In this document: positions 8,023 to 26,299 of the stretch, piece after piece
How the letters are laid out: the number at the start of each line of letters is the position of its first letter
Numbering within the stretch: position 1 is the stretch's first letter
NCBI GenBank assembly: GCA_963812015.1
Contig: CAWETI010000003.1
Span: 1,888,001 to 1,952,000, forward strand
Origin: an uncultured delta proteobacterium
GTDB lineage: Bacteria; Desulfobacterota; Desulfobaccia; Desulfobaccales; 0-14-0-80-60-11
Length of the DNA stretch: 64,000 nucleotides
Reading direction: 5' to 3'
Made by a program: the position numbers and the translations under genes
Notes under the pieces: model-generated
What the model was told of the DNA's origin: nothing
The model's database searches: none
What the model saw: only the letters and a program-made list of their open reading frames with translations

Positions 8023-8180
8023 GTCTATACTTTGATGGCCCCGCGGCCCCCCGCGCCAAGATCTATGGGCATCGCGGCAAGGCTTTTGCCGGCCGCCACC
8101 TCCGGTCGCCCCGGCCAACAAAAAGGCAGGGCCCTGACGGGATACCCTGCCGGATGAAGGATGGTCGGACCGAGGCTCGG

Positions 8181-9327: not shown

Positions 9328-9372
9328 TGTAAATTTTACATCGCTGCATCTTTACAGTTGTGTAATTTTACA
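9328..9372. promoter_or_regulatory. Putative enhancer (UAS) for a sigma54 activator: three TGT/TGC...TTTACA boxes
   Basis: TGTAAATTTTACA, TGCATCTTTACA and TGTAATTTTACA, with TTTACA repeating every 16 bp. Confidence 0.6.
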
Positions 9373-11296
9373 CCTGATCAGGAGGGCGCAAATCGTGGTG
9401 ATTGATGAGTTGATAGAGGGTGGGGCGGGAGATTCCCAGCAGCCGCGCGGCCTTAGCCTTATTCCAGCCGGTTTGCATCAGGGCCTGGAGAATGTCCGGC
9501 CTTTCCAGCGAAGATATTTTGGGGCGAGCCGCGCCGGCGGGAACTTCCTGGGGCGAGTAATCCTGAATCTCGGCCGGCAGATGTTCCAAAGTAATGGTCG
9601 GGCCGTTGCATAGGACAAAGGCATGTTCGATGGCATGCTGCAGTTCTCTGACATTTCCCGGCCAGGGGTAAATCATGAAGATTTGCAAAACTTCCTGGGA
9701 TACCCCCTCAATGCCTTTGTGATAACTCTGATTAAATAACGTTATGAAATTATTTAGCAACAAAGGTATGTCTTCCCGCCTTTCCCGCAAGGCCGGCAAC
9801 GCGACTTCCAATACCTTCAGGCGATAATAGAGGTCCTCCCGAAATTCTCCCAAACTGACCTTTTGCTTCAAATTCACATTGGTGGCGGCAATAATCCTTA
9901 CGTCTACCCGGCAAGTTACGGAATCACCCACGCGCTCAAACGTCTTTTCCTGTAACGCCCTTAACAGCTTCAACTGTAACTTGGGTGGAATATCCCCCAC
10001 TTCATCCAGAAATAGGGTGCCTCCATGCGCGGCTTGCAAGCGGCCCACCCGGTCCTTCTGGGCCCCGGTGAAAGCCCCTTTTACATGCCCGAACAATTCG
10101 CTCTCCAGCAGATTCTCTGCCAAGGCTGAACAATTCACGGTTATCAGGGGTTTATCGGCCCGGCCCCCGCCATAATGGAGCGCCTTGGCAACCAACTCCT
10201 TGCCGGTGCCGGTTTCACCCGTGATCAACACGGTGGTGTCCGTATACATCAATTGATCCAGCAGGCTGAATATTTGCTGCATCTTATGGCTTTTGCCCAC
10301 AATATTATGCAGGTTATACCGCCCGCGCAATTCCCCTTCCATTTCGGCCACCCGGGTCAAATCCCTGATGACCAGAACCGTGCCCATGGTTTTATCCGCA
10401 CTATCCCTCAAGGCAGAACTACTCACCGCCACGATTTGGCGCGACCGATTTTGCTGCTTACATTCCAGTCGGTAATCTTTGATGGTTTTTTCTGTCCTCA
10501 GCATCTCCCGTAAAGCTGCAAAACATGATTGCCCGCAATATCTAGTGACTTCCTGAAACTTCTTACCGATCATCGCTTTGGGATCCAGGCCGCAAATTTC
10601 CCGGTTGGCATCATTGGCGGCGGTAATCCGCATATCCTTGTCAACCGTGATGATGGCGTCATTGACGCTCCGGAATATAGCTTCCAGATTGCGGCGATTT
10701 TGTTCTTTCTCCGCTTCGAACAGGTTTTGCGTCGTCTGAATCAGCCGCGCTTTATTGATGGCCACTGCCGCCAGGGACGCCAGGGACAGGACCAGATTTT
10801 CATAAGCCCCGTGGAAGGGCACCAGTTTCCCCTTATCGTCCATGGCGTTAATCAGCTCTAAAACACCGGTTACGGTGCCGGTATGATCTTTGAGGGGGAC
10901 CGCCAGAATGGATTGCGTGTGGTAATGATTGCGCCGATCAAAGGCCGGGTTGAAGCGATACGGCAAATCGGCCGACAATTCATAGACATCCGAGATATTC
11001 AGGATGTTACCCGTGAGGGCTACATAACCGGCAATACTGCGCTCGCTAATCGGAATCTCAAATTGCTTGAAAAAGTGGAAGTCTTCACCCTGCAAAAGCA
11101 TCAAGGTATTATTTTGCGCTACTTCGAAGCGGAGATTGCCATTCTTCACCAAGAAAATGCTGCCGCCATCCGCGTGAGTCAGGAGGCGGAGTTCATAGAT
11201 AATTTTTTGCAATAACCTGGATAGATCTGTTTCGCTGGAGAGAGCTATACTGATTTCTATGAGTTTTTGTTTGGCAACGTCGAATGAGGCAGCCAT
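9368..11296 (-). CDS. Sigma54-dependent activator: GAF + PAS + AAA+ + Fis-type HTH
   Basis: GETGTGKE, ESELFGHVKGAFTGA, LFLDEVG, WPGNVREL and NKAKAARLLGISR. Confidence 0.95.
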   Translation of the reverse strand: MAASFDVAKQKLIEISIALSSETDLSRLLQKIIYELRLLTHADGGSIFLVKNGNLRFEVAQNNTLMLLQGEDFHFFKQFEIPISERSIAGYVALTGNILNISDVYELSADLPYRFNPAFDRRNHYHTQSILAVPLKDHTGTVTGVLELINAMDDKGKLVPFHGAYENLVLSLASLAAVAINKARLIQTTQNLFEAEKEQNRRNLEAIFRSVNDAIITVDKDMRITAANDANREICGLDPKAMIGKKFQEVTRYCGQSCFAALREMLRTEKTIKDYRLECKQQNRSRQIVAVSSSALRDSADKTMGTVLVIRDLTRVAEMEGELRGRYNLHNIVGKSHKMQQIFSLLDQLMYTDTTVLITGETGTGKELVAKALHYGGGRADKPLITVNCSALAENLLESELFGHVKGAFTGAQKDRVGRLQAAHGGTLFLDEVGDIPPKLQLKLLRALQEKTFERVGDSVTCRVDVRIIAATNVNLKQKVSLGEFREDLYYRLKVLEVALPALRERREDIPLLLNNFITLFNQSYHKGIEGVSQEVLQIFMIYPWPGNVRELQHAIEHAFVLCNGPTITLEHLPAEIQDYSPQEVPAGAARPKISSLERPDILQALMQTGWNKAKAARLLGISRPTLYQLINHHDLRPPDQV

Positions 11297-11638
11297 GGTA
11301 TGACCTCGTTTCGTCTAAATATACCTTTGCATCCGTCGGTCTCAGCCGATCAGGACTGGTTTGGCAGTGCCACTGGGTTCAGCCGATGCATCTCTCCCCT
11401 CATCCCCCTCAAGCCCGCCTGGCTTTTTATCCCGGCAACTATGTTTGCGTTTATTGCCGACATTGTCAAGGGGGAAACCCCGGACTGGGCTTAGTGTTGG
11501 GTTTCATAAATCGTATGATGGCAAGCCACCTGAAAACCTTGGATAGAAGGCGAGTGTGCCCTGGGAGCAGGAGGTGTGATCAGGTCCTGGCAATGAATCG
11601 AGGACGGAGCCCGGGGGCGTCCCGGACGTCGGCGCATT

Positions 11639-12478
11639 TCAGGCCGGCTGGGCCTGGGTCGAACGGGGCGACTGGGCCGCCGCCACCGCCCCGGGCACCA
11701 GGAAAGTGGTCAGGGCTTGTTCCACCTTTTCCAGGTCCACCTGGGTATCGTAGCAGGGACCGTGGGGGCGCTGATTGATCACCCCGAAGACCGGCAGCGG
11801 ATAGCTGTCCTGGATGCCGCTGCTGAGATCCCGCTCACAGGCCACCGCGATGATCAGGCGGGGCCGCCGTTCCACCACGATACGCCGGGCCAGGGTGCCC
11901 CCGGTGGCCACCGCCAGCCCCACCCCGTATTTCTCCGACAGATCCACCAGTCCGGTGATGGGACATTTGCCGCACCGCTTGCAGTGCACCGTACTGCCCG
12001 TGATCCGGAACTGGCATTCGTGGAATTGCAGACAATGGGGCATGAGCAGCAGCAGCTTATCCGGTGTGGTGCGGGGGTGTTGCGCCAGGACCAGCTGATT
12101 GTTGATCTCGATGAACGAGCGGCGGACCTGGTCCTTGGAGACGCCGCATAATTTCCCCACGACGCTCATCAACGGCAGGAGCAGCTTGATCACCAATCCC
12201 CGAAGTTTGCGGGAAAAAAACAGGTCCCGCCCCAAGACCACGGTGAGGGCCAGCATGACCAGGACGCCCACCACCAGCAGGAGCAGGAGGCTGAAGATGA
12301 CTCCCAGGATCAGGGGCAAGCGGGGACTGATGTTGGTGAGCCCCACGTAGGGCACATACCAGAAGACGCCCAGGATGAGGGTGAACAGGATGCAGGTGAC
12401 GGCCAGCAAGCCCAGGAAGATGCGCTTCTGGGGCCGCAGCGAATTGCCGCCGTTCAAGATGGGACCTGACTCATCCAT
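11639..12478 (-). CDS. DUF116 domain membrane protein
   Basis: PHCLQ, CKRCGKC, ATGGTLAR and AVACERDL; usual position downstream of fmt. Confidence 0.88.
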   Translation of the reverse strand: MDESGPILNGGNSLRPQKRIFLGLLAVTCILFTLILGVFWYVPYVGLTNISPRLPLILGVIFSLLLLLVVGVLVMLALTVVLGRDLFFSRKLRGLVIKLLLPLMSVVGKLCGVSKDQVRRSFIEINNQLVLAQHPRTTPDKLLLLMPHCLQFHECQFRITGSTVHCKRCGKCPITGLVDLSEKYGVGLAVATGGTLARRIVVERRPRLIIAVACERDLSSGIQDSYPLPVFGVINQRPHGPCYDTQVDLEKVEQALTTFLVPGAVAAAQSPRSTQAQPA

Positions 12479-12486
12479 GCGCAGTT

Positions 12487-13431
12487 CTACTCCAGCCCCT
12501 GGCCGATTAAAGGTTGGCCTCGCAGAAATTCGGCAGCCTCCAGGCGCTTGTGCCCGGCCAGCTGCAATGCTTGTACCGTGATACTGCCTTGACCGCAGGC
12601 GATTTCCAGACCTAACGGAGTCAGCTTTAAAACCGTCCCGGGGGCCGCCAGGCTTCCTTCACTCTTTTTGACCCGGGCCCCGAATAACTTGAGAACCCGG
12701 CCCGTTAACAAGGCGTAGGCTCCCGGCCTGGGGTCCAGGCCCCGGATCCAGCCGGCTACTTCCCGGGAGGGCAGGTCCCAGTGGATACGGCGCATCTCCC
12801 GGGCCAGAGGCGGGGCCATGGTCACCTCCGCCAGGTCTTGCGGAAGCTGGATAGATTCCCCCCGCCGTAGCATTTCCAGGGATTGGACCAGCAGGGCCGC
12901 CCCCCGCTCCGCCAGCCGGGCGTACAAGGTCCCGGCATTGTCTTCCGGGGTGATGGGCACCCGCTCCTGGAGGAAAACCGGTCCCGAATCCACTTCGTAC
13001 CGAAGCCACTGGATGGTCACCCCGGTCTCCTGTTCCCCCCTGATCAGGGCCCAATTAATGGGGGCCGACCCCCGGTAGCGGGGCAGGAGGGAGGCATGGA
13101 CGTTGAGGGAACCCACTGAGGGCAAGGCCAGAATCTCGGGGGGCAGGATCCGGCCGTAGGCCACGACAATCATGAGCTCCGCTTCCAGCCCCTGAAGGTG
13201 CCGGATGAACTCCGGGTCTTTGAGACGCTGGGGCTGCAGCACCGGCAGATTCCAGGCCAGGGCCAGTTCCTTGACCGGCGAGGGGGTGACGACCTGGCCC
13301 CGGCCCCGGGGCCGGTCCGGTTGCGTCACCACGGCCGCCACCTCTTCCCCGGCGGCCAGGATGGCCTCGAGAGACGGAAGCGCGAACTGGGGAGTGCCCA
13401 TGAAAATCAGGCGCCAGGGTCGGGATTTCAC
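12487..13431 (-). CDS. fmt: Methionyl-tRNA formyltransferase
   Basis: FMGTPQFA, VVTQPDRPRGRG and NVHASLLPRYRG. Confidence 0.97.
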   Translation of the reverse strand: MKSRPWRLIFMGTPQFALPSLEAILAAGEEVAAVVTQPDRPRGRGQVVTPSPVKELALAWNLPVLQPQRLKDPEFIRHLQGLEAELMIVVAYGRILPPEILALPSVGSLNVHASLLPRYRGSAPINWALIRGEQETGVTIQWLRYEVDSGPVFLQERVPITPEDNAGTLYARLAERGAALLVQSLEMLRRGESIQLPQDLAEVTMAPPLAREMRRIHWDLPSREVAGWIRGLDPRPGAYALLTGRVLKLFGARVKKSEGSLAAPGTVLKLTPLGLEIACGQGSITVQALQLAGHKRLEAAEFLRGQPLIGQGLE

Positions 13432-13937
13432 CTAACCGCCACCTGTTTCTTCAAACGCCTTAAATAGAGCCCCCGCTTGAGGCGGCTGATATGATCGATG
13501 AACAGAATCCCGTTCAGATGATCGATTTCATGCTGGAGCACGATGGCCACCAACCCTTCCCCACTGATTTCAATGGGTTTGCCTTCACGGTCCAGACCTT
13601 TGACCAGCACCTTGGCATGACGCCTCACCTCGGCGGCAAAGTCGGCCACCGACAGACAGCCTTCCTCATGGATGATCTCCCCTTCCCCTGCCACGATGCA
13701 GGGATTGATCACCACCTGAAGTTTTCGGGACCGGCCCTCTTTGTGGGTTACGTCGAAGACGATGAGACGCTGGAGTTCCCCCACCTGGTTGGCGGCCAGC
13801 CCCAAGCCCGGCGCGGCATACATGGTCTCCGCCATGTCGTCCACGAGACGCTGCACTCTCCCGTCGATCTCGGTGATTTCCTTGGCTTCTTGCCGCAACA
13901 CCGGATGGGGTAATTGACAAATCGGTAATACTGCCAT
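13428..13937 (-). CDS. def: Peptide deformylase
   Basis: GLGLAANQVG, EGCLS and QHEIDHLNG. Confidence 0.97.
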   Translation of the reverse strand: MAVLPICQLPHPVLRQEAKEITEIDGRVQRLVDDMAETMYAAPGLGLAANQVGELQRLIVFDVTHKEGRSRKLQVVINPCIVAGEGEIIHEEGCLSVADFAAEVRRHAKVLVKGLDREGKPIEISGEGLVAIVLQHEIDHLNGILFIDHISRLKRGLYLRRLKKQVAVR

Positions 13938-14090
13938 GGGCGTGATAATTCTAGTCCCAGAGTAAAGTGTTTTGTTTAATTTAAGGCAAAATCGGAAATT
14001 TTTCAAGAACTCACCGGTCGTCAAGGCCAAAATTGTGGTCGGAGATCATAGAGAAGCGGGGGGAGCCGGGCTCAAGGCGCCGGGAGGATA

Positions 14091-14123
14091 AAAAAGGTGA
14101 GGAGCCGTTTGCCGGCCCCTCAC
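14091..14123 (-). terminator. Probable intrinsic terminator of the Spy/ZraP-like gene
   Basis: GGTGAGG...CCTCACC stem followed by a T tract on the minus strand. Confidence 0.55.
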
Positions 14124-14159
14124 CATCCGGAGGTGGGTTAAGTGAGGAAGGGAGATTTT

Positions 14160-14624
14160 TTACTTGGCCGGCCCGTCGGGGCCAGGGCCACCACCGGCGC
14201 CAACCTTGGGGCAACCACCGACGCCCATGCCGCCGCCGTGGCCGCCTTTGCCATGGCCGAAACACTTGGCCAGCTGCGGGGCGATTTTACGGGCTTCCAG
14301 GTGGAAGGCCGTGCTCTTCTCGATCATTTGGCCCCGCAGGGCGTTGAGTTCCTTCGCCTTGGCGGTAATCGCCTTTTCATCAGGCTTTTCGGCCTTCCAC
14401 AGCGCCGCTAGCTCAGCGTGCTTGACCATCATCTGTTTGCGCACCTCGGCGGTGTCGTTCCTGAACTTCTCCTTGAGGTCAAAGAGCTTCCCCGCCTGAT
14501 CCGGCGTGAGGTTCATGGCTCCCATCATGCCGCCGCCCATGGGACGGGCCCATGAGGCCGCGGCCAACCCCAGGCTCAACGCCAGGGCCAACACCACTAC
14601 CAGGGACATCTTACTCGTTTTCAT
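14160..14624 (-). CDS. Spy/CpxP/ZraP-family periplasmic chaperone
   Basis: Signal peptide, Gly/Met-rich linker, LTPDQ motif; AGGAGGAG RBS. Confidence 0.85.
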   Translation of the reverse strand: MKTSKMSLVVVLALALSLGLAAASWARPMGGGMMGAMNLTPDQAGKLFDLKEKFRNDTAEVRKQMMVKHAELAALWKAEKPDEKAITAKAKELNALRGQMIEKSTAFHLEARKIAPQLAKCFGHGKGGHGGGMGVGGCPKVGAGGGPGPDGPAK

Positions 14625-14686
14625 GTGGACTTATCTCCTCTATCTCGGTTGCGATTGGTTAGTCCGGTTATTCGGCCTTTAGTAAG

Positions 14687-14715
14687 TTAAACCCCCAGGG
14701 GAGCCAAACCCGGCG
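14687..14715 (-). promoter_or_regulatory. Shared bipartite motif CGCCGR-N15-GGGTTWWA, copy 1
   Basis: Same motif and spacing at 56015-56043 and 56742-56770. Confidence 0.55.
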
Positions 14716-14850
14716 CGGTGGCCTGATTTTTTTTCGAGAGGCAGGAACGGACTGAGGAGAAGTGGCCAATGGCGAGAACCGGCGGCGAGAACCCATCAGG
14801 CCACCTTAGTTTGGGGAAATTCTCGAGTGACCTGCCAGCGCTGCCGCCCC

Positions 14851-17016
14851 CTAAGGCGCTTTGCCAATTTGCCGGATGATCTGGTAAACATCTTTGGACA
14901 CCGAGGTGAAGCGGATGTCCGCCTCCTTCAGGATATCGCCCCGGGCCCGCACCGCGGTAACCTTACCGTAGATTTTGCCCCTCACCTCGCTGGCCTCATT
15001 CAGGAGATGGAGGCGCACGTCGTCCCATGCCTGGACCTCCCCTTCCAGGCTAATTTGCGCCGAGGTGTCGCACAGGTGGGTCATCCAGGCATGACCGGCC
15101 GCGTCCTGCACGATCTTTTCTTTGATAATGAAGACCTGGATTTTGATGGGGGTAGTCAGGGCCATGAGGGTATCGCACCTTTCTATGAGGTGGATTTCGT
15201 AAGGCCCGTGGATACCCCGGACATCATAGAGGGTGGCCGGTAGGGGCACCCCTTTCATCTGCACCTGCATGGTGCGCTGCACCTCCACCAGGTCCCGCAC
15301 CCGTTCATAGGTCGCGGCGCTGATGAGCACCTGGCCGCCCACGGAATATGACTCCATCCGGCCGGTAAAATTGACCGGGGAGCCCACCACGCTGTACTTG
15401 GTCCGCTGTTCCGAGCCGATATTGCCCACCACCACTATCCCGGTGTTGACCGCGATGCCCATCTGGAGATAGGGCATCCCTTCGGCCTCGTTGAGCCGGT
15501 TGATCTCATCCATGGAGGCCTGCATGGCCAGGGCGCACGCCACCGCCCGCACCGGGTGATCTTCCAGGGGCTCCGGCGCCCCGAAAAAGGCCAAGAGACC
15601 GTCGCCGATGATCTCATCGATAGTCGCCCGGTGCTCCAGGAGCACTTCGATCATTTTGCCCAGGTAGCGGTTCAAGAAGGTGATCACCTGCTCGGGGTGC
15701 ATGTCCGCGGTCAAGGCGGTAAAACCCCGCAGGTCCGACATGAGAATGGAGAGTTCCCGGGTCTCACCTCCCATTTGCAGGGCGTCCCGGTCTTCCAGGA
15801 GCTTTTTCACCACTTCCTGAGTGACATAACGCCCGAAGGTATCCCGGACGAAGTCCCGTTTTTCGATGTAATCCGTGAGTTGGCGGCCCATCTCGTTGAA
15901 GGACTGGGCCAGGTTGGCGACCTCCCGGACCCCGGTTTCTGGCACCGTGGCGTTAAAGTCCCCCTGGGCGATGGCCGCGGTCTGACGAGCCAGAATTCTC
16001 AAGGGTCGCGCAATCGTTTTGGAAATGGCCACGATCACCACCGCCAGCAACAGCAGTCCTAACATGATGATCCCGAAAATTTTCCGGCTCAGACTGTGGA
16101 CTTCGGCAAATAATTCCTGTTCCGGGATAACCACCGCCAGAGACCAGCCGGTGGACGGCAACGGGGCGTAAAAGAGCCATGATTTTTTGCCGGAATGAAA
16201 GTCAAGCAACGGCACAAACCCGGACCCGCCCCGGATCATGTCCCGTCCCAGGCGCCGCAGGGAGGGGTCACCTCGGGCTTCGGCCAGGCTGAAGACGCTC
16301 TCCCGCATGATCCATTGGGTATTCGGGTGCGTGACGAAGACCCCGTTGCCGGAGATGAGAAAGGCGTAGCCGCTCTGATAAATTTTGACCGCGGAGACCA
16401 GGTCTTGAAGCCACATCAGGGAGAGGTCGGCGGTGACCACGCCCTGGAACCGACGCACCGAACCCTCCCGCCGGTAAAATGGCACGGAATACGTGGACAT
16501 GATGATGTTGCCGCCGCCTTCGTCGAAGTAGGGCTCACTCCACATGGCCTGAGAGAGTTCTTGGGGGAGCTGATACCAATCATAGTAAAAGTAGCGGTAA
16601 GATTCACTCCCCAGATAGGTGATCTTGATCTCTTGGCCTTCCCGAAAGCAATAGGGGCAAAAATAATTGTGGCGGGGATCAAAGGCGTAAGGTTCAAAGG
16701 CCACCGCCACCCCGAAGACCTCCCGGTTATTGGCCACGGTGCGGCGCATCAGGCGCTGCAACTCCGCCTGCCGGTGAGGGTAATCCTCTATCACCGCGGC
16801 CAGGTTGCCGGGGATTTTCATCACCGCTTGGAGCATGGCCTCAATCCGGTACGCGGTCTCCAGGGTGAGGTGCCTGGCGTTTTCGCCCACCTGTTCAATG
16901 ACTGCCTGTTTCGAGGCCACCAGGTTATAGGTGAACGCCGCCAGAAAGATAATGCCCGTGCTGGCGAGGATCAGCAAGATGAGTTGGGCGGCCAGTCCTC
17001 GGGGTTTGGATTGCAT
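14851..17016 (-). CDS. Membrane class III nucleotidyl cyclase: TM-dCache-TM-HAMP-cyclase + PilZ-like tail
   Basis: WSEPYFDEGGG (dCache), SDLRGFT, IDEIIGDG, GNIGSEQRTKYSVVG and VNFTGR. Confidence 0.92.
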   Translation of the reverse strand: MQSKPRGLAAQLILLILASTGIIFLAAFTYNLVASKQAVIEQVGENARHLTLETAYRIEAMLQAVMKIPGNLAAVIEDYPHRQAELQRLMRRTVANNREVFGVAVAFEPYAFDPRHNYFCPYCFREGQEIKITYLGSESYRYFYYDWYQLPQELSQAMWSEPYFDEGGGNIIMSTYSVPFYRREGSVRRFQGVVTADLSLMWLQDLVSAVKIYQSGYAFLISGNGVFVTHPNTQWIMRESVFSLAEARGDPSLRRLGRDMIRGGSGFVPLLDFHSGKKSWLFYAPLPSTGWSLAVVIPEQELFAEVHSLSRKIFGIIMLGLLLLAVVIVAISKTIARPLRILARQTAAIAQGDFNATVPETGVREVANLAQSFNEMGRQLTDYIEKRDFVRDTFGRYVTQEVVKKLLEDRDALQMGGETRELSILMSDLRGFTALTADMHPEQVITFLNRYLGKMIEVLLEHRATIDEIIGDGLLAFFGAPEPLEDHPVRAVACALAMQASMDEINRLNEAEGMPYLQMGIAVNTGIVVVGNIGSEQRTKYSVVGSPVNFTGRMESYSVGGQVLISAATYERVRDLVEVQRTMQVQMKGVPLPATLYDVRGIHGPYEIHLIERCDTLMALTTPIKIQVFIIKEKIVQDAAGHAWMTHLCDTSAQISLEGEVQAWDDVRLHLLNEASEVRGKIYGKVTAVRARGDILKEADIRFTSVSKDVYQIIRQIGKAP

Positions 17017-17063
17017 AATTCCCTGATGTCGCTTCCGGTCATTCTTTGCCGGAGCAACCCATC

Positions 17064-18080
17064 CTATTGCGCCTGGGGAAGACAGTCGCGATAAAATTCC
17101 GAAAATTTCGGGATCTGTGCGATCAGGCCGTTTTCCTGGAGGACCCCCGCGACCCGGGCATACGCTTCGGACGTAAGGGTGCCCATGGGCAGGTTCCATC
17201 CCGGCGGCTGGATGATATCCCGCATCCGCTCCAGCATCCATTTCTGGTGGACCCGGTCCGTCGCCACATTCGCGGCCCGGACATAACCCATAACAATATC
17301 CAGGGATTCATCCGGGTGGGCGAAGGCATACCGCCACCCCTCGAGAGAAGCCGCCACGAAGGCCCGGCATCTTTCCGGATGCTGTTGCACCGTCTCTTCC
17401 AGGCAATAAATGCCGTCCTCGGGGAAGTTCATCCCGTAATCGGCCATAAAAAAAGTGGTTAATTCCTCCGGATTCACGCCGGCGTTGAGAATCTGGTGAT
17501 ACTCGTTGTACCACATGGCCGAGGCCACCTCTACCCCATCCCGCAAGAACAGGTTCAGGGTTGCCGATTGGGGGACCTCCCTCACCCGGAGATGGTGTTG
17601 GCGAAAAAAGGCCCGAGGCTGCAAGCGGAATTCATCCCCCCAGAGGCCCACTCTTTTGCCGTTGATGTCCGCGGGGGCGAGAACGCCCTGGGCTTTCTTG
17701 GCTACCAGCATGAGGGCGGACCGTTGCACCATCTGGGCTATGTTGACCAGTTTGCCCCCCTGGGCCCGCGCTTCGATGCCCTTGGCGAGAAACGCGGTCC
17801 CGAAATCAACCCGGCCCTGGGCCAGCATCTCCGAGGCCGGCCACTCGGGGCCGCCCCGCATGATTTTCACTTCCAGGTGGTGCTGCCGGTAGAAGCCCTT
17901 GGCGTATGCCACGTAGTAGCCGGCGAACTGGGCCTGGGGAAGCCACTGGGGCATAAAGGTGACCCGGGCCAGGCCGCTTTCCTGGGCTCTGGCCCCGGCC
18001 CCCAGCAGGAGGCAGGCCAGCAGCGCCATGACGCCGCCCTTCACCAGACGCGGTACTAAACCTACCATTAAGCCAGGCAT
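17064..18080 (-). CDS. NMT1/THI5/SsuA-like periplasmic solute-binding protein
   Basis: QWLPQAQFAGYYVAYAKGFY; signal peptide; no permease or ATPase next to it. Confidence 0.88.
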   Translation of the reverse strand: MPGLMVGLVPRLVKGGVMALLACLLLGAGARAQESGLARVTFMPQWLPQAQFAGYYVAYAKGFYRQHHLEVKIMRGGPEWPASEMLAQGRVDFGTAFLAKGIEARAQGGKLVNIAQMVQRSALMLVAKKAQGVLAPADINGKRVGLWGDEFRLQPRAFFRQHHLRVREVPQSATLNLFLRDGVEVASAMWYNEYHQILNAGVNPEELTTFFMADYGMNFPEDGIYCLEETVQQHPERCRAFVAASLEGWRYAFAHPDESLDIVMGYVRAANVATDRVHQKWMLERMRDIIQPPGWNLPMGTLTSEAYARVAGVLQENGLIAQIPKFSEFYRDCLPQAQ

Positions 18081-18159
18081 GGCAACGCTCCCCCCTGTGT
18101 CTCTCACCTTGTGCGTGGCGCCCCCAACGCGCCTGGAGCTGCTAACCCCATCACGCTTT

Positions 18160-20124
18160 TCACCTGGGTCCCCCCTTACGCCGCCCCCGGGTTTTTGCAA
18201 AAGTCTGATAGATAGCCGGGGGCACCGAAGTGAAGCTGACCAGGATTTCGCACCGGTTCCCCTCCTGGTGCTTCACCTCGATAACCTTGCCATAGATAGA
18301 GCCCGGCATCGGTTCTTCATTCTCATCCAGAAACGTCAGGCGAACATCCTCCCAGGCTTCCAGGTTGCCCTCCGACGTCACCCGGGCGGCGGTGTCGCAC
18401 AGATGCGTCACCCAGGCCGTTCCGGTGGCGTAGGTGACAATCTTGTCCTTGATATGATGGATCTGGACCCGCTTCCTGGCCGGCAGCTTCGTAAGCTTAT
18501 CCGACTTGTCTCTCAGCCGGATATGGTAAGGGGGGCCGATGCCCCGGACGTCATAGAGCGTGGCCCGGCCCGGCACCCCCTTCATCTCCACCTGCTCCAC
18601 ACTACCCACTTCCACCAGGTCCTGCACCCGACTGTAGGTGGCGGCGCTGATCAGCACCTGCCCCGCCAGGGCACATCCTTCCATGCGGGACGCAAAGTTC
18701 ACGTTGGAACCCACAACGCTATACTTAGTCCGCCTTTCCGAGCCGATGTTGCCCACCACCACCGAGCCGGTGTTCACCCCGATGCCCATGGCCAGTCGGG
18801 GCAGGCCGTCGGCCTCGTTGGCGGCATTGATCTCATCCATGGCCGCCTGCATCTCCAAGGCGCAGGCGATGGCCCGGGCCGGGTGGTCTTCCATGGGTTC
18901 GGGGGCGCCGAAGAAGGCCAAGATGCCGTCCCCCAGAATTTCGTCGATGACGGCGTGGTTGTCCAGGAGAATTTCGATCATTTTGCTCAAATAGCGGTTG
19001 AGAAAGGTGATGACCTGCTCCGGGGCCATGTCGGCGATGATGGCGGTGAAACCCCGCAAATCCGACATGATGAGGGAGACCTCCCGGATCTCGCCGCCCA
19101 TTTCCAGAGCCCCTTCGGATTCCAACAGGCGCTTCACCACTTCCTGGGTGACATAGCGCCCAAAGGTGTCCCGGATGAAATCCCGCTTTTCGATATATTC
19201 GGTGAGTTGTTGTCCCAGTTCATTGAAGGAATGGGCCAGATCCGCCACTTCCCGCACCCCCCGTTCCCGCACGGCCACGGCGAAGTTGCCTCCCCCCACC
19301 TGGCGCACCCCGTCCCGGAGGTGAGAGATGGGACGGGAGATGGTCGCGGCAAACCACAGCCCCGACAAGATCCCAACGAGGCCCAGGGCCAGGCCGGCAA
19401 AGAGGCCTCCGATCATGACCTCCCGGTTGAGAACGGCATAATGCGCCTCGATCTGCTGTTTGGCCTGCACCATGGCGATCTGGGAGGATTCTTTGATCCC
19501 CTGTTGCGCCGGCAGGAAAAATTCATCCAGGTTGACGATGGCCGCAATGATGAACGGGGTGCCGGGGACATGGACCCGTACCGAGAACCGCTGCCTCTCC
19601 TTTTTGTCCTTATCGAAAAACGTAAAAAAACCCTGCACATAGTTTTCCTTAAAGGAACGCTTAATCAACTCCGTGGTCTCCGGGTATTCCTTCTCCCAAT
19701 CCAGCTGGTTTTTACCTTCCACGTTTGGGTCCGGGTGAAACAGTATGTAACCGCGCTGGTCATATAAATCCGTATAGCCCGCTGAACCATGCGGGGTGTA
19801 AATCGGCTGGATGGCAATAGCCCTTATCCGGGGATCCTGGCGCAGTTTGGCGTAATCATCGGTTTTTTTTCCTTTCAAGACATAGGCCAGTTCCCGAGCC
19901 ACCTCTTCGGCCTTGTCCTTGACGACGTATTCGCCCATCACGGTGAGGACTCGATCTGAATGTTGTATGTTCGTTGCGGTTACGTTATTTAGGGCCTGGT
20001 CGGCGATTTTGATGGCGCTCTTGGTGAGCCCGCCCAGCACATGGGCGTTGATGAACCAGGCGCCGACTATTAATATGGCAATAAGCGCCAGATAAGACAT
20101 GATCATATAGGTGCGCAGTCGCAT
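18160..20124 (-). CDS. Second membrane class III cyclase: TM-Cache-TM-HAMP-cyclase + PilZ-like tail
   Basis: ILFHPD Cache motif, SDLRGFT, IDEILGDG, RTKYSVVG and VNFASR; close paralogue of 14851-17016 from the HAMP onward. Confidence 0.92.
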   Translation of the reverse strand: MRLRTYMIMSYLALIAILIVGAWFINAHVLGGLTKSAIKIADQALNNVTATNIQHSDRVLTVMGEYVVKDKAEEVARELAYVLKGKKTDDYAKLRQDPRIRAIAIQPIYTPHGSAGYTDLYDQRGYILFHPDPNVEGKNQLDWEKEYPETTELIKRSFKENYVQGFFTFFDKDKKERQRFSVRVHVPGTPFIIAAIVNLDEFFLPAQQGIKESSQIAMVQAKQQIEAHYAVLNREVMIGGLFAGLALGLVGILSGLWFAATISRPISHLRDGVRQVGGGNFAVAVRERGVREVADLAHSFNELGQQLTEYIEKRDFIRDTFGRYVTQEVVKRLLESEGALEMGGEIREVSLIMSDLRGFTAIIADMAPEQVITFLNRYLSKMIEILLDNHAVIDEILGDGILAFFGAPEPMEDHPARAIACALEMQAAMDEINAANEADGLPRLAMGIGVNTGSVVVGNIGSERRTKYSVVGSNVNFASRMEGCALAGQVLISAATYSRVQDLVEVGSVEQVEMKGVPGRATLYDVRGIGPPYHIRLRDKSDKLTKLPARKRVQIHHIKDKIVTYATGTAWVTHLCDTAARVTSEGNLEAWEDVRLTFLDENEEPMPGSIYGKVIEVKHQEGNRCEILVSFTSVPPAIYQTFAKTRGRRKGGPR

Positions 20125-20322
20125 GGCTACTCCGGTGTATCCTTAATCCCGCTGAAAACGGCGCGGCCGGGAACCCTCGGCGGAATTATACAACGTTTCG
20201 GATTAAATGGAGGAAAGATTCAATATGCGAGCAGACTTAAGGAATCGGAGCCGCCCGGCGGCCCGGATGGACGATTATGAAAGAGCTTGCCGGGTCGGCA
20301 CCTTGGCACCGGCCGCTGGGGC

Positions 20323-21642
20323 TCAGGGGTAGATCCGATCCAAAAGGCGGGGAAAGGGGATGGTTTCCCGGACATGGTGCAGGCCGCAGAGCCAGGCCAC
20401 CAGGCGCTCGATGCCCATGCCGAAGCCGCTGTGGGGCACGCTGCCGTAGCGGCGCAGGTCCAGATACCATTCCAGGGGTTCCTGGGGCAGGTGATGCTCC
20501 CGGATGCGGGCCAGCAAGAGGTCCAGGTCAGCGATGCGCTGGGAGCCCCCGACAATCTCGCCGTAGCCCTCCGGGGCCAGCATGTCCACGCAGAGGGCTA
20601 GCCGGGGATCGACCGGGTCCGGTTCCATATAAAAGGCCTTGGCCTCCTTGGGGTAGCGGTGCACCAGCACCGGCCGGGGAAACAATTGGGAGAGCACGGT
20701 CTCCTCGTCTCCACCCAGATCTTCGCCCCAGGCCAGGTCTTTGCCGTGTTGTTTCAGGTGTTCCAGGGCCTGGGCATAGCTGAGGCGGGGGAACGGTCCG
20801 GCCACTTCCTCAAGGGGGGCGATATCCCGCTCCAGGAGACGTAGCTGCGCCGCCTGGCGATCCAACACCCTGAGGACCACGGCCCGCACCAGGCCCTCGG
20901 CCAATTCCATCATATCATCCAGGGTAAAGAAGGCCGCCTCGGCCTCCACCATCCAGAACTCCGTCAGGTGGCGACGGGTCTTGGATTTTTCCGCCCGGAA
21001 GGTCGGCCCGAAGCAATACACCCGGCCCAGGGCCATGGCCGCGGCCTCGAGATAGAGCTGGCCGCTCTGGGACAGATAGGCCTTGCCCCGGTCCAGATAG
21101 TCCGTCTCGAAGAGGCTGGTGGTACCCTCGCAGGCCGTGGGAGTAAGGATGGGGGTGTCCACCAGGACGAACCCCCGTTCGTGGAAAAAATCCCGGCAGG
21201 CCCGGCAGACCTCGTCCCGGATCCTCAGGATGGCCTGCTGCCGGGGAGACCGGAGCCACAGGTGGCGCCGATCCATGAGAAAGGCCACCCCGTGTTCCTT
21301 GGGGGAAATGGGATAGTCCGGGGCGATCTGCAGGGGTATCACCCGGGTCACTTCCAGCTCAAAGCCCCCGGGAGCCCGGGGCTCGGCCCTGACCCGGCCT
21401 TCCAGGATCAGGGAGGTTTCCAGGGTAAGCATCTCGAATTGCTGAAAATCTTCCTCAGGGAGGTTCCCCTTGACCAGTACCCCCTGGGCCAACCCGGTGC
21501 CATCCCGGACCACCAGAAAGCGGACCTTGCCGCTGGAACGCAGATGGTACACCCATCCGCGCAGGGACACGGCCTGTCCGACATGCTGGGCCAGGGAAGC
21601 GATGTCAACCACCGGTGCGGTGGTGGTAATAGTTGGCGGCAT
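20323..21642 (-). CDS. asnS: Asparagine-tRNA ligase
   Basis: AYLSQSGQLY, FGPTFRAEKSKTRRHLTEFWM and WYLDLRRYGSVPHSGFG. Confidence 0.96.
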   Translation of the reverse strand: MPPTITTTAPVVDIASLAQHVGQAVSLRGWVYHLRSSGKVRFLVVRDGTGLAQGVLVKGNLPEEDFQQFEMLTLETSLILEGRVRAEPRAPGGFELEVTRVIPLQIAPDYPISPKEHGVAFLMDRRHLWLRSPRQQAILRIRDEVCRACRDFFHERGFVLVDTPILTPTACEGTTSLFETDYLDRGKAYLSQSGQLYLEAAAMALGRVYCFGPTFRAEKSKTRRHLTEFWMVEAEAAFFTLDDMMELAEGLVRAVVLRVLDRQAAQLRLLERDIAPLEEVAGPFPRLSYAQALEHLKQHGKDLAWGEDLGGDEETVLSQLFPRPVLVHRYPKEAKAFYMEPDPVDPRLALCVDMLAPEGYGEIVGGSQRIADLDLLLARIREHHLPQEPLEWYLDLRRYGSVPHSGFGMGIERLVAWLCGLHHVRETIPFPRLLDRIYP

Positions 21643-21807
21643 AGGATGGCGAACCTTATCGGTCAACTTGCCAAAATCGTTATGAATTGTAATGGGCAAA
21701 GGCTCTCGGGGCCTTGCCCTTGCCGTCCAGGAAGACAGCTTCTGCGGCCCGCTTTCGCCAGGCGCCCCACGGTGGCCTCAAGGCCTACAGCTCACTGCTT
21801 ACTCCTC

Positions 21808-22755
21808 CTACAACATGATCTTGATGTGAGCCTTTTCCCGCAAGGTCTTGACCCAATCGCCAAAATACTTATTCATTTCCTGTTGGGTCACTATTCTGCG
21901 AATTTCCGGGGCCGCCTCTTCAAAGGAGCGGGCCTCGCCGCTGCGGCGGCCCAAAATTTGAATCAATTGATAGCCTTCCGGGGTTTCCACCGGGGCCAAA
22001 TCGTTCATTTTCAACTGGCCCAGGAATTCGGCCAGCCGCGGGTCCAGGTCGCTTTGGTTCACAAACCCCACATCCGTAGGTTTGAGTGAGAGTTTCCCGG
22101 CCGCCGTCGCCAGAGACTCACCCCGTCTCACATCCGTGATGATGGTCTCCGCGTTCTTTTTGGCTTCCTCTTTTTGCTGGCTGGTGGCCCCCGGCGGGAA
22201 CGGCAGCTTTAAGGTCATGAGATGCACCTGGTTGCCGCTTTTCTTGAATCTTTCCTCATAGAGGCGGCGCACCTCGGCGTCACTGACCATAACCTTTGTC
22301 CCCACCACCACCGGCAGCAATCGCTCCTGAATCATTTGATCCGCAATCTGCTGCCTGAATTCTTTTATGGAAAGCCCGGCCTGGGACAGTCCCTTGGCCA
22401 GGGTTTCGTCATCGGGAATATTATTGGACTGCTTGAAGCGAGCCAGGGATTCATCCACTTCTTTGTCGGTTACCTTGATGCCCCGGCGATTGGCCTCGGC
22501 TTTGGCCAGTTTGCGGTCAATCAAGGCCTCCAGCATCTCGCGCTCCATTTTCTTCTCAACTGCCCCTCCAGATTTAATCCCTGACTGGGCCTGAATGGTC
22601 TTGCCCATGTTTTGCAACTCGGACATGGTGATGATTTCGTTGTTAACTTCGGCTACAATCCGGTCCACCACCTCAGCCATACCCGTCCCCGTCTGCGCCA
22701 ATTGGATCAGGACGGCAACCAGAGCGATGAGTAAAGGCCCCTTAATTTTTATCAT
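21808..22755 (-). CDS. surA: SurA-family periplasmic chaperone/PPIase
   Basis: VVDRIVAEVNNEIITMSEL N-terminus; C-terminal LREKAHIK; located downstream of mfd. Confidence 0.8.
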   Translation of the reverse strand: MIKIKGPLLIALVAVLIQLAQTGTGMAEVVDRIVAEVNNEIITMSELQNMGKTIQAQSGIKSGGAVEKKMEREMLEALIDRKLAKAEANRRGIKVTDKEVDESLARFKQSNNIPDDETLAKGLSQAGLSIKEFRQQIADQMIQERLLPVVVGTKVMVSDAEVRRLYEERFKKSGNQVHLMTLKLPFPPGATSQQKEEAKKNAETIITDVRRGESLATAAGKLSLKPTDVGFVNQSDLDPRLAEFLGQLKMNDLAPVETPEGYQLIQILGRRSGEARSFEEAAPEIRRIVTQQEMNKYFGDWVKTLREKAHIKIML

Positions 22756-22759
22756 CGAT

Positions 22760-25700
22760 TTAACCCTCTACCTCTGCATTAACAAATGTCTCGACTTCTT
22801 TCAAGCAGTTTTGCAACTGCGTGAGTACCGGGCCGGTTTCCGGGAGTTGAATCCGCAAGGTTTGATCCGGGGTGAGGCGAAAGGTCTGGGGCCGCTTCTT
22901 GAGGATGCCGATCAAACGGCCCAGGTCCAGGCGCTCCGGGTGGGCAAATTGCAGCACCGCACAATTGTCCTGCAGGTCCAAACGCTTGATCCCCAATTGC
23001 CGCAACTGGTGTTTAGCCCGCACCACCTCCAGGAGATTGCGCCCCTCCTGAGGCAGGGGCCCGAAGCGGTCAAGAAATTCCGCTTCCAGTTCCTTCAGCA
23101 TCTCAGGCGTCAGGCGACCCGAGAGACGCCGGTACAGGGCCAGGCGCTGCTGCACATCGGGGACATAATCTTCGGGCAAATAAGCGGCCAGGGGCAGATG
23201 GATTTCCGGGTCCGGCGTCGCCTCCTCCATCGGTTCCCCTTTGTATTCCCGAATGGCCTCCTCCAACAGTTGGAGATAGAGTTCGTAGCCCACCTCGGCT
23301 TGGTGGCCCGATTGGGCCTGTCCCAGCAGGTTGCCGGCCCCCCGGATCTGGAGGTCGTGCATGGCTATCCTGAAGCCGGAACCCAGTTCCGTGAACTCCA
23401 TCAGGGCCTTGAGGCGCTTCTGGGCCTCATTGCTCAGGGCCGCCTCGTCCGGGACCAGCAGATAGGCGTAGGCCTGGGACTGGCTGCGTCCCACCCGGCC
23501 TCGCAACTGATAGAGCTGGGCCAATCCCATGGTATGGGCCCGGTTGATGATAATCGTGTTGGCCGAGGGAATATCCAGCCCGGCCTCAATGATGGCGGTG
23601 CACACCAGGACACTTACCTCCCGCCGCCAGAAGCGCACCATGACCCGTTCCAGTTCCTTTTCCGCCATCTGGCCATGGGCCATGGCCACCCGGGCTTCCG
23701 GCACCAGTTCCTGGACGTACCGGGCCCAGGTGGCCAGACTCCGCACCCGGTTGTGCACGAAGAAGACCTGGCCACCCCGGTCCAACTCCCGGCGGATGGC
23801 GGACTGGATCACCGCGGCCTCCGGCAGGCAGACATAGGTGCGGATGGCCCGGCGGTTCTCCGGCGGGGTGTTGATCAGGCTCAACTCCCGGATGCCGGTG
23901 AGGGATAACTGCAAGGTGCGGGGAATGGGGGTGGCCGTGAGGGTGAGGACATCCACAGTGCGCCGCCACTCCTTCAGCCGCTCTTTCTGCCGGACCCCGA
24001 AGCGCTGCTCTTCGTCCACGATGACCAGTCCCAGGTCCTGGAACGTGACGTCTTTGGACAGCAGACGATGGGTCCCGATCAGGATGTCCACTTTTCCTTG
24101 GGCCAGGTCCGCCAGGATCCGTTTCTGCTCCGCCGGCGACTTGAACCGGCTCAGGGCCCTTACCTCCAGAGGAAAATGAGCCAGGCGATGCCGGAAGGTG
24201 TCGTAGTGCTGCTCCGCCAACACCGTGGTGGGCACCAGCATCGCCACCTGTTTGCCATCCATGGCGGCCTTGAACGCGGCGCGCACCGCCACCTCGGTTT
24301 TGCCGTAGCCCACGTCCCCGCAGATCAGGCGGTCCATGGGTTTCTCCGAGCCCATGTCCAACAGCACGTCGCCGATGGCCTGCAACTGGTCCGGGGTCTC
24401 CTCATATTCGAAGGTGGCTTCAAACTCGCGGTAGACCGGGTCCGGGGGCGAAAAGTGGTGCCCCGGCAGCACCCGGCGCAGGGCATAAAGCTCCACCAGT
24501 TCCAGGGCGATCTTTTCCACCGCCTTTTTTACCCGGGTTTTGGCCCGTTCCCAGGACTTGCCTCCCAGACGCTCCACCCGGGGGCTCACCCCTTCCACCC
24601 CCAGGTATTTCTGCACCAGGTTGAGGCGGTCCACGGGGAGATAGAGCCGGTCCCCGCCCTGGTATTCCAGCTCCAAAAAGTCGTTGACTTCGCTGCCCAC
24701 CGTGAGTTTGATCAGGCCCCGGTAGATGCCAATGCCGTGGTCCAGGTGAACCACGTGATCGCCTTCCGTCAGGTCGGCCAGGGAAGTGAGATCCTGGAGC
24801 GGCGGGGATTCCTTGCGCCGCCGCCCTTCCGGCCGGAATCCCAGGGCTTCATCTTCGGTGAGGACAATCAGGCCTTCCGAGAGCAGCCGAAACCCCCCGG
24901 TCAATTCCCCGGCGGTAATTTCCACCCGGTTCCCGCGCCCCCAGGCGGGGGCCGGGGTGAACTCCACCTCCAGGCCCTCTTCCGTCAGCAGGCGGGCCAG
25001 GCGCTCGGCCCGATGCCGGTTCAAGGATACCAGGATGACGTGGAACCCGGAGCTGCGCCATTCCCTCAGGTGCTGCGCCAGGGCCGGGATTAACCGTCCG
25101 GTTTCACCCCCGGCCTGGACCAGTTCCTCGGCCAGGTGGTCGTTTTTCTCCACCTGGAAGGTGATATCCTGGTCCTGATCCGGATGGCCCCAGAGTAAAG
25201 GGGGGCAGAAGATCTGGGCGAAACGGCGGCATTGCTCTTCCCAGGGGGTTTGATCCAGCCAGCCCTGGGGTACGCCGGCCGCGGCTTCCTCCTGCTTCTG
25301 CAGTTCCTGCCCCAGGATCAAGGGGTCCCATTCCACCACCACGGTGTCCGGGGGTAGGAGGTCCCACAGGGTCGGAGGATGGTCGTAAAACTCCTCCAGA
25401 TGACGTTCGATCCGGGGGAAATGCCGGCCCTCGTGGACGTGGCGCCAAAATTCCGGATCCTGGCGGCGGCTGCGCCGGGCCAGAACGCGCTCCCGGACGG
25501 CTTCGTCCAACACCACTTCACTGGCCGGAAGCACCAGCAGGTCGTCCAGCGTCCCCTGGGAACGCTGGGTGCCAGGATCGAAGCGGCGGATGGACTCCAC
25601 CTCATCCCCCCAGAACTCCAGGCGCACCGGTTGGGGATAGAGCGGCGGAAATAGGTCGATGACCCCGCCCCGGACGCTGAACTCCCCCCGTTCCTCCACC

Positions 25701-26299
25701 ACGGGTCGGCGCTCATAGCCGCCCTCCAAAAGGTGGGCCAGCAACTCCGGGCGTTCCAGACTTTCCCCCGCCACCACGTAGGCCAAAAGGTCCCGAATCC
25801 GGGCCTCCGGGGGCAGCTTCTGCCGCAGGGCCAGGGCCGGTGCTACAATGAGGCACGGCTCCCGGGCAGTCAGGGCCACATAGGCGGCCGCCATACGGGC
25901 GCAGCTCACGTCAGCGTCGAAGCTCAGTTCCCGAAATGGCAAGACCTCGTGGGCCGGGAACATGAGGACTCGGGACTCCGGGCCGGTGGCCCGGACGACC
26001 TCTTCCCCCAGAAAAAAGATCAAGTCCTTAAAAAAATGTTCATGAAAATTGACATTGGGGGTAACCAGGAGGACCGGGCGCTGGATTTGTTGGAAGAGCC
26101 GGGCCAGGATATAAGCCCCGGCTCCGGGAGTGAGCCCCTGGAGATATGCCGGCCGGGATTCCCGGGAGAGAGCCACAGCCAGATGCTGCGCTGCCGCGCT
26201 TAAAGATAACGTGCCTACCACTTTATAACCATATCCCGGCAAGGGAATTTTTTCAAGAAGCCCTTGATTCCCCCGTCTGGGCAAGCTCTCCTGCGTCAT
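22760..26299 (-). CDS. mfd: Transcription-repair coupling factor
   Basis: GEFSVRGGVIDLF, VVHLDHGIG, CGDVGYGKTEVA, DEEQRFG, LTATPIPRTL and QLRGRVGR; start uncertain. Confidence 0.97.
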   Translation of the reverse strand: MTQESLPRRGNQGLLEKIPLPGYGYKVVGTLSLSAAAQHLAVALSRESRPAYLQGLTPGAGAYILARLFQQIQRPVLLVTPNVNFHEHFFKDLIFFLGEEVVRATGPESRVLMFPAHEVLPFRELSFDADVSCARMAAAYVALTAREPCLIVAPALALRQKLPPEARIRDLLAYVVAGESLERPELLAHLLEGGYERRPVVEERGEFSVRGGVIDLFPPLYPQPVRLEFWGDEVESIRRFDPGTQRSQGTLDDLLVLPASEVVLDEAVRERVLARRSRRQDPEFWRHVHEGRHFPRIERHLEEFYDHPPTLWDLLPPDTVVVEWDPLILGQELQKQEEAAAGVPQGWLDQTPWEEQCRRFAQIFCPPLLWGHPDQDQDITFQVEKNDHLAEELVQAGGETGRLIPALAQHLREWRSSGFHVILVSLNRHRAERLARLLTEEGLEVEFTPAPAWGRGNRVEITAGELTGGFRLLSEGLIVLTEDEALGFRPEGRRRKESPPLQDLTSLADLTEGDHVVHLDHGIGIYRGLIKLTVGSEVNDFLELEYQGGDRLYLPVDRLNLVQKYLGVEGVSPRVERLGGKSWERAKTRVKKAVEKIALELVELYALRRVLPGHHFSPPDPVYREFEATFEYEETPDQLQAIGDVLLDMGSEKPMDRLICGDVGYGKTEVAVRAAFKAAMDGKQVAMLVPTTVLAEQHYDTFRHRLAHFPLEVRALSRFKSPAEQKRILADLAQGKVDILIGTHRLLSKDVTFQDLGLVIVDEEQRFGVRQKERLKEWRRTVDVLTLTATPIPRTLQLSLTGIRELSLINTPPENRRAIRTYVCLPEAAVIQSAIRRELDRGGQVFFVHNRVRSLATWARYVQELVPEARVAMAHGQMAEKELERVMVRFWRREVSVLVCTAIIEAGLDIPSANTIIINRAHTMGLAQLYQLRGRVGRSQSQAYAYLLVPDEAALSNEAQKRLKALMEFTELGSGFRIAMHDLQIRGAGNLLGQAQSGHQAEVGYELYLQLLEEAIREYKGEPMEEATPDPEIHLPLAAYLPEDYVPDVQQRLALYRRLSGRLTPEMLKELEAEFLDRFGPLPQEGRNLLEVVRAKHQLRQLGIKRLDLQDNCAVLQFAHPERLDLGRLIGILKKRPQTFRLTPDQTLRIQLPETGPVLTQLQNCLKEVETFVNAEVEG

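Follow-up and report, generated by a model that had tools for sequence, protein, structure and literature searches.

A solute-binding protein gene beside Cya2-like cyclases in a Desulfobaccales genome: a probable variant of binding-protein-driven receptors with a probable cyclic GMP output

The window analyzed here is a 64,000-nucleotide stretch of contig CAWETI010000003.1 (assembly GCA_963812015.1, positions 1,888,001 to 1,952,000 of the forward strand) from an uncultured member of the Desulfobaccales. Three co-oriented, adjacent genes occupy positions 14851-20124 of its minus strand: cyc2, the gene of a solute-binding protein (SBP) of the NMT1/THI5-like family, and cyc1. Beginning at the second membrane helix and continuing to the C-terminus, the two cyclase proteins are 60% identical (425 residues); their periplasmic sensors are unrelated to each other. 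An original prediction from the sequence had described two co-oriented, paralogous proteins with the order TM-Cache-TM-HAMP-cyclase (TM, transmembrane segment) and different sensors on either side of a THI5/NMT1-like protein, which the open reading frames (ORFs), the Pfam matches and the comparison just given bear out; the domains it named are all present, and what it missed is a further domain with a PilZ fold behind each cyclase. It had also seen no permease or ATPase gene here, and a Pfam scan of the 11 ORFs across 9368-26299 indeed found neither component of an ATP-binding cassette (ABC) transporter. We regard the locus as a probable variant of the known binding-protein-driven receptors, one with cyclic GMP (cGMP) as its probable output. 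The features are collected in Table 1; the true starts of cyc1 and of the SBP gene probably lie downstream of the starts of the longest ORFs, as orthologue alignments and the upstream sequence indicate.

Table 1. Features of the cyc2-SBP-cyc1 locus in window coordinates (E, expect value; pLDDT, predicted local distance difference test; aa, amino acids).
Feature	Position	Strand	Description
cyc2	18160..20124	-	654 aa; TM, Cache-like periplasmic sensor, TM, HAMP, class III cyclase, PilZ-fold domain
cyc2 periplasmic sensor	19420..20037	-	~200 residues between hydrophobic segments 2-34 and 234-263 (hydropathy)
cyc2 HAMP	19201..19356	-	PF00672 E 1.1e-9
cyc2 cyclase catalytic domain	18511..19089	-	Guanylate_cyc PF00211 E 3.8e-29; 2W01 E 2.9e-53
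cyc2 C-terminal PilZ-fold domain	18187..18492	-	AlphaFold2 model pLDDT 79; Foldseek top matches PilZ domains
SBP, NMT1/THI5-like periplasmic binding protein	17064..18080	-	NMT1 PF09084 E 2.2e-39; hydrophobic leader
SBP mature part	17067-17984	-	
SBP ORF, longest	17064-18200	-	probable start ATG at 18080
cyc1	14851..17016	-	TM, dCache, TM, HAMP, class III cyclase, PilZ-fold domain
cyc1 ORF, longest	14851-17241	-	probable start ATG at 17016
cyc1 periplasmic dCache	16087..16914	-	MCP-like_PDC_1 PF22673 E 7.7e-31; dCache_1 PF02743 E 1.2e-19; predicted SBP docking site
cyc1 HAMP	15874..16026	-	PF00672 E 3.6e-13
cyc1 cyclase catalytic domain	15202..15762	-	Guanylate_cyc E 5.3e-25
cyc1 C-terminal PilZ-fold domain	14872..15186	-	aligned with cyc2 copy

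The position of the SBP gene next to cyc1 is conserved well beyond this genome. Of 60 related genomes, 18 encode an orthologue of the SBP (6 of the 17 from the same genus), and the SBP gene lies directly 5' of the cyc1 orthologue in all 17 of the relatives' loci with flanking sequence; cyc2 is upstream in 11 of these and missing in the other 6. The close homologues all come from Desulfobaccales or from Desulfobacca metagenome bins. A wider scan, using one genome per species, gave at least 582 loci; the best 80 were retained and span Desulfobaccales, Syntrophales, Syntrophorhabdus, Desulfobacterales, Omnitrophota, Nitrospiraceae, WOR-3 and other lineages. In 79 of these 80 loci the SBP gene is directly followed by a gene with the cyc1-type dCache domain, and the 80th ends at a contig edge. 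The output behind the dCache domain is the HAMP-cyclase-PilZ-fold cassette in 25 loci and HAMP-SpoIIE, a PP2C phosphatase, in all 50 remaining full-length loci, with 4 more cut by the contig end. The phosphatase-type loci share with the window the SBP family (53-62% identity), the dCache domain and the gene order, and differ in carrying a PP2C output in place of the cyclase and PilZ-fold cassette. Because most relatives carry the phosphatase, the SBP-dCache sensor appears to be much older than its cyclase output. In the 25 cyclase-type loci whose upstream flank is long enough, a cyc2 gene stands upstream 18 times and is missing 7 times.

Judged by this gene order, the SBP is the specific partner of cyc1, the dCache receptor encoded downstream, and not of both cyclases, and cyc2 is an accessory paralogue; an SBP serving both enzymes was considered and dropped because cyc2 is so often absent. 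The conserved link between an sbp gene and a receptor gene, with no ABC genes beside them, is the arrangement seen in receptors stimulated by binding proteins, and a partnership of SBP and cyc1 as a two-part periplasmic sensor is likely. The SBP has the NMT1/THI5-like family match and secretion leader of a periplasmic binding protein and no linked cognate permease or ATPase. Since proteins of the NMT1 family (ThiY, SsuA, TauA) are classically ABC components, the SBP could instead mainly serve an importer encoded elsewhere in the genome, its position between two cyclases being incidental. We consider this very unlikely, given that the same sensor adjoins it across phyla and in front of two different outputs. 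Moreover, no ABC gene was found among the 43 ORFs scanned out of 99 unassigned flanking ORFs at 13 loci, and, of the genome's two single-permease and three two-permease ABC loci, the two single-permease ones were inspected and carry SBPs of their own. The SBP is the sole NMT1 protein of the genome. In the same flank scan, no flanking gene was conserved beyond the genus and no linked effector emerged.

A predicted complex also argues against the importer. Modeling the mature SBP (18-row alignment) together with the cyc1 periplasmic domain (17-row alignment) gave values of the interface score ipSAE of 0.84-0.85 in three runs, and the best of 3 controls reached 0.00. This mark is reached by 116 of 157 solved complexes and by 2 of 215 mismatched pairs, a comparison that is rough since custom alignments were used here. 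At least 95% of contacts agree between the runs and the pLDDT of the partner is 89 or higher. In the model the SBP docks sideways and contacts both modules of the dCache domain, whose predicted interface shows higher conservation than its remaining residues (0.756 vs 0.629, permutation p 0.003) among 76 relatives with either output. The original prediction of a receptor gated by a binding protein thus fares well in one respect, as the constant pairing, the lack of transporter genes nearby and the complex score of 0.85 all suggest that the SBP is a signaling partner and not a transporter component, and less well in another, as the pairing is with cyc1 alone.

Comparable systems are described in the available part of PMC8050422, where the pairs LuxP-LuxQ, HptA-HptS and NspS-MbaA likewise have an sbp gene that adjoins receptor and not transporter genes, as well as a receptor sensor of the dCache type. 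For HptA-HptS that part of the review gives the sideways docking on both dCache modules that is predicted here. Unlike in those receptors, binding within the SBP-cyc1 pair is only a prediction. No cyclase is among the receptor outputs covered in the same part, which are chemoreceptors, kinases, GGDEF/EAL enzymes and a Ser/Thr kinase, and NMT1 is nowhere mentioned in PMC8050422.

The fold of the SBP gives a pointer to the kind of molecule it may carry. Its structure model (pLDDT 87) is nearest to ThiY (3IX1) and to the thiamin-bound protein 4NMY from C. difficile, with TM-scores of 0.84-0.86 (E 3e-24 and 6e-22), followed by Thi5, TauA and SsuA. The two nearest proteins belong to the same Pfam family as the SBP and differ from it in that identity is down to 20-22% and in that the SBP here has no linked ABC partner.

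Both proteins match PF00211 and have the catalytic residues of class III nucleotidyl cyclases, namely the two metal-binding Asp, an Arg beside the first Asp, the transition-state Asn and Arg, and the phosphate-binding Lys; the original prediction had read the Asp pair and the Asn/Arg pair in both. Where adenylate cyclases have Lys, both have Glu (Glu543 of cyc1, codon 15613-15615; Glu395 of cyc2, codon 18940-18942), exactly at the codons it had named, and the second specificity position is Ser, as it had also said (Ser617 of cyc1, codon 15391-15393; Ser469 of cyc2, codon 18718-18720). Among the orthologous cyclases of relatives the Glu is kept in 28 of 28 and the Ser in 28 of 29, with Gly in the remaining one. 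Among solved structures, cyc2 comes closest to 6FHT (E 7.7e-61), a phytochrome-Cya2 chimera with Lys at the specificity position, and next to Cya2 itself (2W01, Synechocystis sp. PCC 6803; E as in Table 1), the one bacterial cGMP-forming enzyme studied in depth. Cya2 is the best solved relative of cyc1 too, and the description of the catalytic domains as Cya2-like and Glu-type holds. The chain alignment with 2W01 places Glu and Gly of Cya2 at the two specificity positions, and the Cya2 motifs that the prediction had cited were correct.

According to the available part of PMC6005667, guanylate cyclases combine Glu with Cys, Ser or Gly (Glu-Gly in Cya2, Glu-Cys or Glu-Ser in the mammalian enzymes) and adenylate cyclases combine Lys with Asp or Thr. 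The same text has a Lys of Cya2 support the Glu, and a Tyr act jointly with the Gly. No discussion of specificity residues was found in An et al. 2013 (PMC3770947). Cya2 resembles the two enzymes of the window in the Glu, in all catalytic residues, in a Lys-Tyr pair that directly precedes the second specificity residue, and in being a membrane receptor with an outside sensor. It differs in having Gly where they have Ser at the second position and Tyr572 where they have Ser or Gly; in its sensor, which the accessible text of PMC6005667 gives as CHASE2, as opposed to a dCache or Cache-like domain plus HAMP; and in that one of the receptors here (cyc1) has a dedicated SBP partner. From these residues we hold with moderate confidence that cGMP is the most likely product, the remaining probability falling to cyclic AMP (cAMP) or mixed products.

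Glu-type cyclases are neither the rule in this genome nor rare in sequence data. Of 13 cyclase-domain matches in the genome, 4 have Glu at the Lys position and are putative guanylate cyclases: cyc1 and cyc2, which are Glu/Ser, and two Glu/Gly proteins encoded elsewhere (C2:236706-238757, plus strand, and C2:320613-322058, minus strand). Lys is combined with Thr in eight of the other nine, the ones with a good alignment. When all 1.84 billion cluster representatives were scanned, 4131 clusters matched at E up to 1e-30, and of these the best 150 (clusters at 50% identity) were taken as the nearest relatives. In this set of 150, the first position is Glu in 113 and Lys in 3, and the first motif could not be parsed by the pattern in 29; the parsed pairs with Glu are Glu/Gly (82), Glu/Ala (15), Glu/Ser (9) and Glu/Thr (3), with the second position unparsed in 4. 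The view of the original prediction that bacterial cGMP synthesis is rarely documented therefore holds for experiments and fails for genes, as there are thousands of Glu-type clusters in sequence data, and the Cya2-like Glu-type cyclases are a large, almost untested family.

The domain that follows each cyclase comprises about 110 residues and has no Pfam match in the window copies; among 31 orthologous copies, 7 are recognized by Pfam PilZ (best E 4.3e-6). An AlphaFold2 model of it has the beta-barrel fold of PilZ and matches the PilZ domains of BcsA, MotI, PlzA, VCA0042, Alg44 and YcgR in Foldseek (best E 5.7e-4, TM-score 0.59-0.67). Neither of the two motifs that we take to be canonical for binding of cyclic di-GMP (c-di-GMP) appears in the consensus of the domain alignment. 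The domain is like the PilZ receptors for c-di-GMP (BcsA, YcgR, MotI, Alg44) in its fold and in the Pfam matches of some orthologues; unlike them it is fused behind a cyclase and has a conserved signature of its own, the shared positions being Lys, Ser, Asn-x-Lys, Tyr-x-Lys and Phe-Thr-Ser. Searched with a profile of this domain, 109 of the 150 nearest cyclase clusters give a match; among the 128 whose tail is sufficiently long, 105 do. In the Atlas, the same fold occurs behind cyclases with receiver-kinase, PAS or CHASE2 sensors, those with CHASE2 being cyanobacterial; of the cyanobacterial clusters with the fold, some have CHASE2. No description of a cyclase-PilZ fusion was found in open-access papers and preprints. 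The domain is probably an allosteric or partner-binding module.

The sensor of cyc2 is of a different kind from that of cyc1. It gives only sub-threshold Pfam matches (sCache_2, dCache_2, Cache_3-Cache_2), and a sequence search of structures found no meaningful solved relative (best E 0.16). A tree of 46 HAMP-cyclase cassettes and the genome's two other Glu-type cyclases unites the cyc1 and cyc2 cassettes in one clade (support 100/99), in which the main cyc2 group (19 rows, 99/99) is nested among cyc1 rows. The tree suggests that the cyclase form of the sensor is confined to Desulfobaccales and a few neighbors. In the history that it may record, the cyclase cassette replaced the PP2C output on an old SBP-dCache sensor and was then duplicated onto a new sensor; because the root rests on two long branches, the order of the two steps is only suggested.

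The adjacency and common orientation of cyc1 and cyc2, their identity through HAMP, cyclase and C-terminal domain, and the single clade of their output cassettes would also fit a heterodimeric cyclase of cyc1 and cyc2 that integrates two periplasmic signals, a possibility raised in the original prediction. We think this improbable. Nothing requires a heterodimer, because each protein has the full catalytic set and a homodimer suffices, and the loci that lack cyc2, both in the wider scan and among the relatives, speak against it as well.

Six loci have a third cyclase with a cyc2-type sensor directly downstream of cyc1 (L022, L024, L039, L043, L046 and L047). In the three whose copy is long enough for the tree (L043, L046, L047), the cassette of this third copy groups with the local cyc1 and not with the upstream cyc2, which suggests a recent duplication or gene conversion. 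Several metagenome bins carry a cyclase gene broken into two overlapping frames (cyc1 in L020/L037, the cyc1 tail in L016/L032, cyc2 in L017/L033); either a frameshift or an error of assembly may lie behind this. In L020, L037, L051, L052, L054 and L055, cyc2 and the SBP gene stand about 1.5 kb apart, and in L020 the gap holds a frame of 363 aa on the opposite strand (7221-8309, plus strand) with no Pfam match.

From the gene content, residues, synteny and folds described above, we infer how binding, ligand, product and direction of regulation may fit together. The secreted NMT1-type SBP would bind a small molecule, for which its nearest folds, binders of thiamin or its pyrimidine precursors, are a pointer, and would dock sideways on the dCache domain of cyc1, touching both modules. 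Membrane helix and HAMP would relay the docking signal to the class III cyclase, which would act as a homodimer. This enzyme of the Cya2 family, whose base-recognition positions hold Glu, Lys and Ser, would most likely make cGMP. With the same HAMP-cyclase-PilZ-fold cassette on an unrelated Cache-like sensor, cyc2 would feed a second signal into the same nucleotide pool. We give the whole model, taken jointly with its SBP-cyc1 sensor, cGMP product, accessory cyc2 and regulatory PilZ-fold tail, about an even chance.

Several observations weigh against it. The predicted interface on the SBP is not more conserved than the rest of the protein (0.715 vs 0.686, p 0.30, in the same 76 relatives). No gene for a protein that binds cyclic nucleoside monophosphates is linked to the locus, and the genome's six are all elsewhere. 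The dCache domain is close to proven direct amine binders (3LIB) and may sense a ligand of its own. In the cyclases, neither of the Cya2 residues Gly562 and Tyr572 is kept, the first being Ser in both and the second Gly in cyc1 and Ser in cyc2; and the available part of PMC4215837 reports that swapping specificity residues often fails to switch specificity.

The third of these points bears on the input. Two M. mazei kinase sensors, 3LI8 (E 1e-36) and 3LIB (E 1.5e-34), are the best solved relatives found with the dCache profile, and the accessible part of PMC10589655 identifies 3LIB as its target R1, a predicted amine-binding domain tested there. The stretches lining the pocket align well with 3LIB. 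The dCache domain could thus sense a small amine directly, and the SBP would then be a modulator or second input and not the carrier of the ligand. Where 3LIB has Met-Val-Ser, however, the family of the cyc1 domain has Met-Ser-Thr, a stretch that we take to hold two positions of the amine motif and thus an apparent substitution; in the same part of PMC10589655 a single motif mismatch abolished binding. A three-residue insertion also lies next to the pocket, and the strict linkage to the SBP gene argues that the SBP is essential to the sensor. Direct amine sensing is accordingly possible and somewhat unlikely, and we keep to the SBP as the carrier of the ligand.

The last two points bear on the product. 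Tyr572, which in the accessible text of PMC4215837 immediately precedes the transition-state Arg and greatly raises guanylate cyclase activity, has a Tyr counterpart in just 14 of 116 parsed relatives. With these features of GTP preference gone, with the poor prediction of specificity from residue identity that the same text stresses, and with public annotations that name the orthologues "class 3 adenylate cyclases" (automatic names), both enzymes might be adenylate cyclases or have no strong purine preference, and the locus would encode an ordinary pair of cAMP receptors. The invariance of the Glu in the orthologues stands against this, as do the Lys with Thr of the eight well-aligned other cyclases of the genome, the record in PMC6005667, as far as its text is available, of Ser as a second residue in guanylate cyclases, and Cya2 as the closest solved relative. 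The adenylate alternative is a tentative one that we do not favor. Because Gly562 and Tyr572 of Cya2 are replaced, cGMP synthesis is something we infer, and the substrate choice is therefore a well-founded guess and not a result.

Few tested enzymes underlie what is said of cGMP signaling in bacteria, and the locus provides a defined pair of receptors, for which an external partner is predicted and whose input, product and regulation are each separately testable. An SBP-dCache sensor with interchangeable outputs, on the scale of the wider scan, would extend the binding-protein-driven receptors to class III cyclases and the NMT1 family, and the PilZ-fold tail would mark an unstudied regulatory element of the whole Cya2 family. 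A bolder and doubtful extension has a modular NMT1-dCache sensor whose output is a PP2C phosphatase in some cases and a cGMP-forming cyclase in others, with the PilZ-fold tail of most Cya2-family cyclases as a regulatory nucleotide site for c-di-GMP or for the product of the cyclase. If true, it would link two guanine-nucleotide messengers in one enzyme and give the Desulfobaccales extensive cGMP signaling.

The surroundings of the three genes encode a tRNA synthetase, SurA, Mfd, a Spy/CpxP-like protein, def, fmt, a DUF116 protein and a sigma-54 activator. NCBIfam gave sub-threshold matches only for all three proteins of the locus. In the precomputed Pfam column of many orthologues, PF26769 is listed between PF00672 (HAMP) and PF00211 (cyclase); it is absent from the Pfam scan of the window proteins at E up to 0.01. 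A frame of 602 aa is open antisense to cyc2 (17959-19767, plus strand) and is most likely a by-product of the high G+C content. Promoter and terminator scans stayed at chance level, except for one strong, terminator-like hairpin (14096-14124; 12 pairs, then a T run) after the gene of the Spy/CpxP-like periplasmic protein (Metal_resist, E 7.5e-12). This gene (14160-14624, minus strand) lies 226 nucleotides downstream of cyc1. Periplasmic modulation of a sensor is known for CpxP-type proteins, and a Spy/CpxP-like neighbor also stands 3' of cyc1 in two loci of the same genus (L014 and L015), and not beyond the genus.

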